A DNA stretch of 10,045 nt, taken from IMG/VR virus record IMGVR_UViG_2703718777_000022; one strand, 5' to 3'. Under the pieces are notes generated by a model, which saw only the letters and a program-made list of their open reading frames with translations, made no database searches and was not told where the DNA came from. The stretch is from a virus. Taxonomy: Duplodnaviria > Heunggongvirae > Uroviricota > Caudoviricetes. Of the stretch, positions 4,141 through 4,911 are shown piece by piece; the stretch's first letter is position 1, and every line of letters begins with the position of its first letter. A program made the position numbers and the translations under genes.

Positions 4141-4356
4141 ATGCCATCTAAATACCGGGATAATCCACTTTATTACAGGGCTGCAAGGGAGGCTTTGCGA
4201 CTTGAACAATTCGGCGAATATGACCGGGCAGCGAAGGTCTGGGCAAAAGCCAACCGCGAATCACATCACGAACTGAATCAGGAATGGAGTGAACGCAGAT
4301 CTGATTTTTGCCTGATGCAGAATATGCGTGAAAAGCGTAAGGCGGTCGAAGAATGA
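4141..4356 (+). CDS. small hypothetical protein, possibly a PerC/ANR-like prophage regulator
   Basis: 71-aa ORF starting 6 nt after the polymerase stop; its stop overlaps the next start (ATGA at 4353-4356). The segment ALRLEQFGEYDRAAKVWAKA resembles the A-x2-LE-x2-G-x3-RAA-x2-W pattern I recall for PerC/ANR-type small regulators. That recall is not verified. Confidence 0.4.
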   Translation: MPSKYRDNPLYYRAAREALRLEQFGEYDRAAKVWAKANRESHHELNQEWSERRSDFCLMQNMREKRKAVEE

Positions 4357-4652
4357 TCGTTTACGTTGCCGGGCCGATGAGCGGTTACGAGCAATTTAAC
4401 CGCCCGGCTTTTCATTCCGCAGCAAAGAGGCTAACGGACAAGGGATATGTTGTGCTTAACCCCGCAACTTTACCCAATGGTTTGACACAGGCTCAGTATA
4501 TGGACATCTGCCTCGCAATGCTTCGCTGTGCCGATACGATTTATATGCTCAAAGAGTGGGAGTACTCTGCTGGCGCACGTGCAGAAAACGCGTTGGCAGA
4601 GAAACTGGAATTGAATGTGCTTTTTGAAGAGTGGGATTCAGATGGCCTATGA
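4353..4652 (+). CDS. DUF4406-like protein (nucleoside 2-deoxyribosyltransferase-like fold)
   Basis: 99 aa. N-terminal MIVYVAGPMSGYEQFNRPAFHSAAKRL...VLNPA matches the remembered DUF4406 / deoxyribosyltransferase-like signature (hydrophobic-Y-hydrophobic-AGPM-x-G ... F ... NPA). Translationally coupled to both neighbours. Confidence 0.65.
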   Translation: MIVYVAGPMSGYEQFNRPAFHSAAKRLTDKGYVVLNPATLPNGLTQAQYMDICLAMLRCADTIYMLKEWEYSAGARAENALAEKLELNVLFEEWDSDGL

Positions 4653-4911
4653 ACGTGAAAGCCTTATCGAAAAGCACCTCGTCGCTGAAGTGAAAAAAGC
4701 TGGCGGAGTGGCCTTTAAGTTTGTATCTCCCGGTCACCGCTCGGTACCGGATCGCATTGTCCTGCTACCCGGTAGTCGTATCGTTTTCGTTGAATGTAAA
4801 TCACCCGGCAAGCCACCACGGCCTGACCAATTGCGCGAACATGAACGTCTGCGGAAACTGGGCTTTACCGTAGTGGTGCTGGATAGCAAAAATCTGGAGG
4901 GGATATTGTGA
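4642..4911 (+). CDS. VRR-NUC domain nuclease (PD-(D/E)XK fold)
   Basis: PDRIVLLPGSRIVFVECKSPGKPPRPDQLREHERLRKLGFTVVV carries the D...ExK catalytic arrangement typical of VRR-NUC. I prefer the ATG at 4642 (GGGA 6 nt upstream, 11-nt overlap with the previous gene) over the track's ATG at 4615; either is possible. Confidence 0.7.
   Translation: MAYERESLIEKHLVAEVKKAGGVAFKFVSPGHRSVPDRIVLLPGSRIVFVECKSPGKPPRPDQLREHERLRKLGFTVVVLDSKNLEGIL

Follow-up and report, generated by a model that had tools for sequence, protein, structure and literature searches.

An exchangeable DUF4406 gene between ANR and VRR-NUC genes in the putative replication operon of a temperate Escherichia coli prophage

The stretch of DNA described here (10,045 nucleotides (nt); IMG/VR record IMGVR_UViG_2703718777_000022, Caudoviricetes), termed the window, forms the right arm of a temperate Escherichia coli prophage that is integrated beside yfhL (window 9785-10045). 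Prophages with 100% identity to it occur in seven complete E. coli genomes, one of them that of the Shiga toxin-producing E. coli (STEC) strain 2014C-3061. Our subject is a trio of small genes whose direct upstream neighbour is a family-A DNA polymerase gene (PolA, 89-99% identical in relatives), and which encode an ANR-family protein, a DUF4406 protein and a stand-alone VRR-NUC nuclease (table 1). [quoted passage not shown] Within this order the DUF4406 gene fills a gene-sized exchangeable slot, bordered by the stop codon of ANR and the start codon of VRR-NUC.

A preliminary description of this DNA had reported consecutive genes overlapping or nearly abutting after the polymerase, and the open reading frames (ORFs) are found at the coordinates given there. 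Read from the sequence, the PolA TAA and the ANR ATG at 4141 lie 5 nt apart. The ANR/DUF4406 junction, GAAGAATGATCG, is an ATGA stop/start overlap at 4353-4356, and at the DUF4406/VRR-NUC junction, CAGATGGCCTATGAACG, the ATG at 4642 and the TGA at 4650-4652 create an 11-nt overlap (4642-4652). These two overlaps are as first described; the third, at the VRR-NUC/Arc junction (ATATTGTGAGT, 4908-4911), had been given as ATGA and is in fact GTGA, with GTG as the start codon. An alternative VRR-NUC start, the ATG at 4615, was rejected: homology among cassette variants starts at 4642, and we prefer that codon because homology resumes exactly at ATGGCCTAYGAACG and the PGAP start is identical.

The constancy of this arrangement was surveyed in two sets of relatives. 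A megablast comparison of window positions 3300-5100 with 5,426 complete E. coli genomes found the PolA end in 159, VRR-NUC in 114 (at 80-100% identity), ANR in 96 and DUF4406 in 73. The second set comprised 78 IMG/VR loci anchored on VRR-NUC and also holding PolA, all of which contain ANR-like sequence; DUF4406 is present in 15 of the 78, a TIR gene in 24, a phrog_2358 gene in 14, DUF7446 in nine and a methyltransferase-like gene in eight, and the cassette genes occur in many combinations with differing downstream slots. The loci in these surveys are related prophages, and the counts therefore describe diversity rather than independent events. Neither set supports the proposal that the trio is conserved with the polymerase as a unit. 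Co-conservation with the polymerase largely holds for VRR-NUC and ANR, also in prophages of Pectobacterium and Candidatus Erwinia, and it fails for DUF4406. VRR-NUC was found in every relative examined and ANR in most; two E. coli variants have no ANR, and in the annotated variants that carry a TIR gene it is frameshifted.

The interval between PolA and VRR-NUC differs widely in content among these relatives. In the simplest case (locus L006) ANR is followed by an 88-nt spacer, and the gene order is that of the bare backbone: DUF2800, SSB, PolA, ANR, VRR-NUC and SNF2, the last directly overlapping VRR-NUC in this minimal relative. Elsewhere the interval holds ANR and DUF7446 (L003), or a 67-residue ORF, ANR and a small methyltransferase-like gene (phrog_954 'DNA methyltransferase'; L005), or a TIR-like PDC-S35 defence candidate, a frameshifted ANR and a 64-residue phrog_2358 ORF (L001, L004 and L009). 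The two variants that lack ANR contain a HATPase-type gene on the opposite strand (L007) and a 169-residue ORF with a YfbU-family gene (L008).

Alignment of the junction regions of four variants places the borders of the slot at single codons. Similarity ends exactly at the ANR stop, GAAGAATGA, and returns exactly at the VRR-NUC start, ATGGCCTAYGAACGTGAAAGCC, such that the ATGA at 4353-4356 is the left recombination boundary of the cassette and the 4642-4652 overlap its right boundary. The exchangeable DNA runs from about 4357 to 4641, with the DUF4406 ATG embedded in the conserved end of ANR. DUF4406 has no stop codon of its own: its reading frame enters the conserved 5' end of VRR-NUC, which contains its last three codons and the out-of-frame TGA at which it ends, and the 11-nt overlap thus arises as a by-product of how the two are joined. 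All cassettes examined keep a stop/start overlap with VRR-NUC, which is TGATG in L003 and TAATG in L001. The DUF4406 cassette is at least 95% identical in all 73 E. coli genomes that carry it, where the adjacent ANR or VRR-NUC can be as low as 88-91%; near-identity beside diverged neighbours fits an exchange of the cassette between diverged backbones. Gene order and both overlaps are the same in L172, a metagenomic relative with about 77% nucleotide identity and protein identities of 89% for PolA, 73% for ANR, 79% for DUF4406 and 91% for VRR-NUC; a single insertion event is therefore not the origin of the arrangement, which is old in part of the group. A recent arrival of DUF4406 as an insert of foreign composition was rejected: its GC content is about 50%, like that of its flanks, and the lineage at about 77% identity is arranged alike. 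The pattern as a whole is one of ordinary phage mosaicism rather than a dedicated three-protein machine.

Table 1. Genes of the window that belong to, or lie within, the putative replication module (aa, amino acids).
Feature	Position	Strand	Basis and remarks	Place in module
DUF2800, C-terminal part	79-855	+	Pfam DUF2800 1.9e-52; cut by window edge	upstream backbone
DUF2815/Enc34-type SSB	871-1419	+	Pfam Enc34_ssDNA-bd 1.3e-43	upstream backbone
Family-A DNA polymerase (PolA), 3'-5' exonuclease region	2072-4135	+	Pfam DNA_pol_A 2.2e-13; PGAP 'DNA polymerase'	backbone
ANR-family protein, 71 aa	4141-4356	+	NCBIfam NF033650	near-constant in module
DUF4406 protein, 99 aa	4353-4652	+	PF14359	facultative cassette
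VRR-NUC (PD-(D/E)XK) nuclease, stand-alone, 89 aa	4642-4911	+	phrog_93, 4QBO/4QBN	backbone
Arc-like ribbon-helix-helix protein, 58 aa, GTG start	4908-5084	+	Pfam Arc 1.4e-09	
Rha/antirepressor-like ORF	5693-6541		TTG 5693 start (282 aa) or ATG 5735 (PGAP choice)	
SNF2-type helicase	6585-7979	+	Pfam SNF2-rel_dom 3.3e-12	backbone, closes module

The expression of the trio can be considered in the light of these junctions. An AAGGA lies 9 nt upstream of the ANR start and a GGAGG 7 nt upstream of the Arc-like start, and DUF4406 and VRR-NUC have no Shine-Dalgarno core of at least 4 nt. No promoter-like or terminator-like sites were found on the plus strand between 2072 and 5084. The features that would be expected of a coupled operon are thus present in the sequence: a single strand, overlaps of 4, 11 and 4 nt, weak Shine-Dalgarno sequences downstream and no internal promoter or terminator. 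It is plausible that the trio is co-transcribed with the polymerase and that DUF4406 and VRR-NUC are translationally coupled, the latter because both are without a good Shine-Dalgarno sequence. In the mechanism that we propose, the trio would be transcribed together with the polymerase during lytic growth, and DUF4406 and VRR-NUC would be translated by termination-reinitiation, given that both are without a good ribosome-binding site. Phage operons commonly contain four-base stop/start overlaps, and those seen here are therefore no statistical oddity.

A profile search with DUF4406 retrieved 17,808 clusters (50% identity) at E<=1e-3, and tblastn detected the family in 667 of 50,697 phage records, with hosts that include Mycobacterium, Vibrio, Gordonia, Arthrobacter and Pseudomonas. 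Among the best 80 IMG/VR loci with DUF4406, 14 belong to the prophage family studied here and 66 to other enterobacterial phages at 63-72% identity; genes in these loci were located by tblastn of cluster representatives. In none of these 66 is PolA, ANR or VRR-NUC found within 6 kb of DUF4406, which supports the independence of DUF4406 from the nuclease and runs counter to the earlier suggestion that the two act together. DUF4406 has no conserved link to nuclease or polymerase.

The neighbours that DUF4406 does have vary with the phage. In the 66 loci it sits in the early accessory region of lambdoid-type phages, with a Dam, MT-A70 or Dcm-Dam methyltransferase upstream in 53 (within 400 nt in 43), and with DUF1382 and a DksA/TraR zinc-finger gene downstream. 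A 72-residue phrog_303 ORF occurs in 52 loci, immediately upstream of DUF4406 in most and just downstream in six. One string recurs (L024-L089, for example L034 5400-7000): methyltransferase, 72-residue phrog_303 ORF, DUF4406, DUF1382, DksA/TraR and a 212-residue ORF. The adjacency to methyltransferases may reflect function or mere synteny; a role as an S-adenosylhomocysteine nucleosidase, prompted by these neighbours, was set aside, as it had no support beyond the adjacency. DUF4406 directly follows DnaB in four loci, and in an Atlantibacter prophage the order is cI-cro-cII-O-DnaB-DUF4406-HNH...Q. The actinophage genes stand among SSB, DnaQ-like and endonuclease genes, and depositor labels for the stand-alone actinophage versions are inconsistent: deoxycytidylate deaminase, hydrolase, glycosyltransferase and deoxyribosyltransferase.

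One alternative, which goes back to the preliminary description, is a functional team in which DUF4406, VRR-NUC and the polymerase would act on modified or damaged DNA and the overlaps would set their stoichiometry. The genes are indeed adjacent and seem to form one transcription unit, and two lineages about 23% apart in nucleotide sequence have both kept the overlaps. We nevertheless regard such a team as very improbable. The neighbour of VRR-NUC can equally be DUF7446, a non-coding spacer, or a gene of the methyltransferase-like or phrog_2358 type; the 66 DUF4406 loci elsewhere have no VRR-NUC, PolA or ANR nearby; the structural relatives of DUF4406 all act on free nucleosides or nucleotides and not on DNA; and the geometry of the cassette junctions accounts for the overlaps.

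The assignment of the cassette gene (protein WP_000637724.1) to DUF4406 is borne out by profile searches: PF14359 matches at 116.7 bits against a cut-off of 22, over residues 1-90 of a 91-position model, and phrog_355, 'nucleoside 2-deoxyribosyltransferase', matches at 3.8e-44. The deoxyribosyltransferase fold that had been proposed for it is likewise upheld by an AlphaFold2 (AF2) model, built with 47 homologues (pLDDT 90.4), whose best Foldseek matches are nucleoside deoxyribosyltransferases (NDTs), DNPH1 and MilB/BcmB. The PDB entries concerned are 2a0k, 8pqp, 1t1j (a structural-genomics protein), 8qhr and 4jel, all at probability 1.0 and TMq 0.66-0.75. The Pfam family Nuc_deoxyrib_tr (PF05014) does not match the window protein and matches one of 37 DUF4406 relatives (1.7e-4), and PDB searches with the single sequence and with a profile gave nothing meaningful.

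Conservation within the family was examined in two sets. The residues N16, R17, F20, S72, A75 and E78 are invariant among 47 close homologues (set A1), with G7 and G74 at least 90% conserved; G7, F20, S72, G74, A75 and E78 are invariant in a broader set of 37 sequences (A3). The AF2 model places S72-x-G74-x-x-x-E78 on the loop and first helix turns that follow strand 3. This S-x-G-x-x-x-E motif falls in register with 'SLGVGYE' of DNPH1 in an alignment that is not significant (hhalign probability 0.45%). The glutamate of 'SLGVGYE' is the catalytic nucleophile of DNPH1. The window protein ends after its fourth strand and a short helix, and the PDB matches are 119-165 residues long. No second Pfam domain was found among the 37 longest close relatives of DUF4406, and their extensions are therefore probably miscalled starts. 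The sole informative fusion is gp165 of Mycobacterium phage Halley (L168 2480-3226), a protein of 248 residues in which DUF4406 (28-111, matching at 8.4e-22) is joined to a MazG/PRA-PH-type pyrophosphohydrolase (142-196). The fusion suggests that the substrates are nucleotides and not DNA, and that NTP would be converted in two steps, first to NMP and then to base plus sugar phosphate.

We favour the interpretation, drawn from the fold, the motif and the fusion, that DUF4406 serves lytic replication as an N-glycosidase or transferase of (deoxy)nucleotides. Glu78 would be the nucleophile with which the enzyme, like DNPH1, MilB or NDT, cleaves or transfers the N-glycosidic bond in a nucleoside or (deoxy)nucleotide that is free. 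The effect would be to tune or clean the pool of nucleotides while phage DNA is synthesised, and the enzyme would act independently of the nuclease.

A different purpose for the same chemistry has to be weighed, given what else resides in these slots. A TIR-like gene of 253 residues lies between polymerase and ANR in three loci (L001 7254-8015; L004 3401-4162; L009 4901-5662) and matches the PADLOC candidate defence family PDC-S35 at 1e-108; ANR is marked as frameshifted in the annotated E. coli variants that carry it (L004 and L009). A SIR2-family gene precedes the polymerase in L005 (1-1184), a HATPase_c-type 'ATP-binding protein' follows it on the minus strand of L007 (3344-4372), and Nmad5-family 'nucleotide modification' genes lie upstream of PolA in L003 and L008. 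The replication arm of this prophage family seems to collect conflict-type cargo at its gene boundaries.

DUF4406 could itself be cargo of this kind, with the PolA-VRR-NUC interval as a hotspot: an enzyme of counter-defence, or less likely of lysogen protection, that destroys one nucleotide. Candidate substrates would be an immune signalling nucleotide, molecules derived from nicotinamide adenine dinucleotide (NAD), or the modified deoxynucleoside monophosphates of competing phages, such as hydroxymethyl-dCMP (hmdCMP) and hydroxymethyl-dUMP (hmdUMP). This proposal draws on the presence of the PDC-S35 candidate in the same interval, on SIR2, HATPase-type and Dcm genes in neighbouring slots, and on the methyltransferase-like gene that can occupy the very slot of DUF4406. 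It also draws on the 43 of 66 loci elsewhere in which DUF4406 lies less than 400 nt downstream of Dam or MT-A70 methyltransferases, on the binding of hmdUMP by DNPH1 (PDB 8qhq) and on the mention of NDT-like effectors in papers on retron defence. PADLOC, however, has no match for DUF4406, nor for ANR or VRR-NUC, and DUF4406 has no promoter of its own and lies inside a lytic replication operon, which weighs on lysogen defence and not on counter-defence. Moreover, the family's occurrences in phages of many hosts are mostly among DNA-metabolism genes; its GC content is like that of its flanks and unlike that of the AT-rich moron at 1446-2045; and the methyltransferase association, drawn from related lambdoid phages, may be synteny only. 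We consider a cargo role unlikely, and less likely again its more specific form, in which the interval is a conflict-gene hotspot and DUF4406 a minimal NDT-fold counter-defence enzyme that hydrolyses one nucleotide against a host defence or a competing phage.

The nuclease of the trio was correctly recognised as VRR-NUC. It matches phrog_93 at 1.8e-31 and, by phmmer against the PDB, 4QBO at 8.9e-14 and 4QBN at 7.7e-11, and scores 19.7 bits with Pfam VRR_NUC (PF08774), below the cut-off of 23.8. Its 'VPDRIV', 'FVECK' and 'PDQL' segments align with the PD...ExK...Q motifs of stNUC. For VRR-Nuc proteins of the stNUC/saNUC type the roles of K47 and Q57 have been described, the glutamine forming a hydrogen bond with the lysine, and these stand-alone templates are dimers, similar to Holliday-junction resolvases, that bind four-way junctions and cut them symmetrically (PMC4103454). 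By analogy, the window protein is most likely a dimeric resolvase of Holliday junctions or branched DNA, and would resolve these and other branched intermediates of replication and recombination before packaging.

The first gene of the trio had been described as PerC/ANR-like, which agrees with its match to NCBIfam NF033650 (69 bits, cut-off 32) and to phrog_2227 (6e-24); the Pfam PerC family (PF06069) scores 18.7 bits, below its gathering threshold of 22.6. The ANR signature consists of A10, E14, A22, W26, A29, W43 and R47 (Santiago 2016, PMC4983702). All seven residues are found in the window protein, as A18, E22, A30, W34, A37, W49 and R53, with equal spacing save for one loop that is 2 residues shorter, and F56 and C57 match the '@C' of the signature. 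A single-sequence AF2 model (pLDDT 88.6) is all-helical, with helices at 9-23 and 27-70, two against the three predicted for the family. ANR occupies the same position in prophages of Pectobacterium odoriferum and Candidatus Erwinia dacicola; these two loci came from a contig scan with ANR, which shows cross-genus synteny and not distribution.

ANR proteins bind AraC-type regulators promiscuously (PMC4983702), and the family member Aar binds H-NS, whose binding to DNA is altered as a result (PMC5570504). Apparently without a DNA-binding domain, the window protein most likely binds a host protein, for which H-NS would be the best documented partner in the family; by analogy, it may reasonably be supposed to counter silencing on behalf of the phage. 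As a side case, ANR proteins may have begun as phage-encoded H-NS antagonists that were later recruited to virulence regulons.

The gene could instead be a lysogenic-conversion factor that tunes the virulence regulons of STEC and enteropathogenic E. coli (the locus of enterocyte effacement (LEE) and AraC-type activators) and does not serve the phage. The strong NF033650 match and complete signature speak for this, as do the promiscuous binding of AraC-type regulators and the many carrier strains that are STEC, O103, O111 or O45, and the PerC-like/ANR-like gene of the phage-inducible chromosomal island (PICI) EcCIMP1 represses the LEE (PMC11773190). The window gene, however, lies inside a lytic replication operon, 5 nt after PolA, and its position is kept in P. 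odoriferum, Ca. E. dacicola, commensal E. coli IAI1 and cat and dog isolates. An AraC-family gene is not among the annotated prophage genes, and ANR is frameshifted in the annotated TIR-carrying variants. On this evidence we think lysogenic conversion improbable. The near-constant presence of ANR in the replication module, also in Pectobacterium and Erwinia, suggests that the role of the family is broader than the control of virulence via AraC-type activators.

Taken as a whole, the locus is on balance best explained as a replication operon that contains an exchangeable, nucleotide-directed DUF4406, a resolvase-type VRR-NUC and a host-protein-binding ANR. A number of points weigh against this explanation. 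Coupling and co-transcription have sequence features as their sole basis. The prophages surveyed are kin, and their counts are not independent events. At 99 residues, DUF4406 is short beside the approximately 130-160 of NDT and DNPH1 and has no C-terminal segment to complete the active site, Asp51 is invariant in close relatives only and not in the wider DUF4406 set, and the comparison of its sequence with that of DNPH1 is the non-significant one given above. The literature searched for DUF4406/PF14359 gave no functional study or biochemical data, and the phage NDT literature that was found concerns PF05014 or DpdA rather than DUF4406. The substrate could be a nucleoside, a nucleotide or another N-glycoside such as NAD. 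Finally, the annotation of the 48-kb prophage and of its flank contains no AraC-family gene, and the link between ANR and H-NS is extrapolated from Aar.

Two further variable slots lie within the module. Between SSB and PolA, on the minus strand at 1446-2045, is a 199-residue ORF with membrane-protein-like sequence; searches of Pfam, PHROGs, NCBIfam and PADLOC gave no match for it. With a GC content of 31-33%, where the polymerase gene has 51-58%, it resembles an AT-rich moron that occupies a second cargo slot. Relatives have at this position a variant with 68% identity, Nmad5, Ant, a gene of the SIR2 family or further hypothetical genes. The third slot is outside the backbone and opens with the Arc-like gene at 4908-5084. 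It comprises an Arc pair, a 58-residue ORF and the Rha-type gene, at 41-44% GC, and relatives have Dcm with a 106-residue ORF here, or nothing. The Arc-like paralogues are convergent (4908-5084 on the plus strand, 5053-5382 on the minus strand), with identical first 14 residues, 60% identity over 52 residues and a 32-nt overlap of their 3' ends. The plus-strand gene contains a hairpin (5027-5002) that is terminator-like for the minus strand, and no direct or inverted repeats were found around the pair. Of the two possible starts of the Rha-type ORF, only the ATG at 5735 has a ribosome-binding site, a GGAG 8 nt upstream. Beyond SNF2 are a small helix-turn-helix protein and then the integrase, on the minus strand.

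The core module and all three families of the trio are already known and catalogued. Annotation as such adds little, since RefSeq, through PGAP, already carries the same family names ('ANR family transcriptional regulator', 'DUF4406 domain-containing protein' and 'VRR-NUC domain-containing protein'). What the present analysis adds is the recognition of DUF4406 as a facultative cassette with exact gene-boundary junctions, in a setting where VRR-NUC is universal among the relatives examined and ANR occurs in most. Phages carry DUF4406 in abundance (667 of 50,697 records; about 17,800 sequence clusters), and no published function was found for it. The prophage family offers natural, near-isogenic variants in which DUF4406 is present, replaced or absent at one defined slot, and a clean genetic or biochemical test is therefore easy to design.

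Comparison with known systems reveals both similarities and differences for each component. DUF4406 has in common with the NDT-fold enzymes (2a0k and 8pqp; DNPH1/Rcl, 8qhr; the CMP N-glycosidases MilB/BcmB, 4jel and 4jen) a Rossmann-like core, and by a weak alignment its S-x-G-x-x-x-E is located where the catalytic glutamate of DNPH1 sits; it also has an N-terminal 'YxAGP' strand-loop, comparable with the NDT motif. It differs from these enzymes in being about 50 residues shorter and in having no C-terminal elements to complete the active site of the neighbouring subunit. In Halley gp165 the domain is fused, whereas the window protein is a stand-alone domain and the window contains no MazG gene. 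The archetype of the ANR family, Aar of enteroaggregative E. coli, resembles the window protein in its size (<10 kDa), helical nature and signature residues; unlike Aar, the window protein is not encoded beside an AraC/XylS activator, nor is it known to be under the control of one, but in a phage replication operon, found also in plant- and insect-associated bacteria. PerC/Pch (PF06069) and the PerC-like gene product of the PICI EcCIMP1, itself proposed as an ANR (PMC11773190), are small helical proteins of mobile elements with weak profile similarity to the window protein, which falls below the Pfam PerC threshold; the effect on the LEE is known for the PICI gene only.

The nucleases stNUC (4QBO, Streptococcus phage P9) and saNUC (4QBN, Salmonella phage SETP3) have, like the window nuclease, about 90 residues and the PD...ExK...Q motifs; they were weak enzymes in vitro, and the activity of the window protein is predicted. 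The closest parallel to the module as a whole is that of Enterobacter phage Enc34 and the 'Nazgul-like' phages, which consists of a primase, a presumed transcription factor, a polymerase, VRR-NUC, a helicase and a DUF2815 SSB (PMC5686142), and replication modules of this type have been reported in many phage genome papers. The likeness, drawn from the published description (which mentions neither ANR nor DUF4406) and not from the Enc34 sequence, lies in the core set and its order, corresponding to DUF2800, the DUF2815-type SSB, the family-A polymerase, VRR-NUC and the SNF2 helicase of the window. In contrast to that of Enc34, the module described here is part of an integrated temperate E. coli prophage, and has three variable slots.

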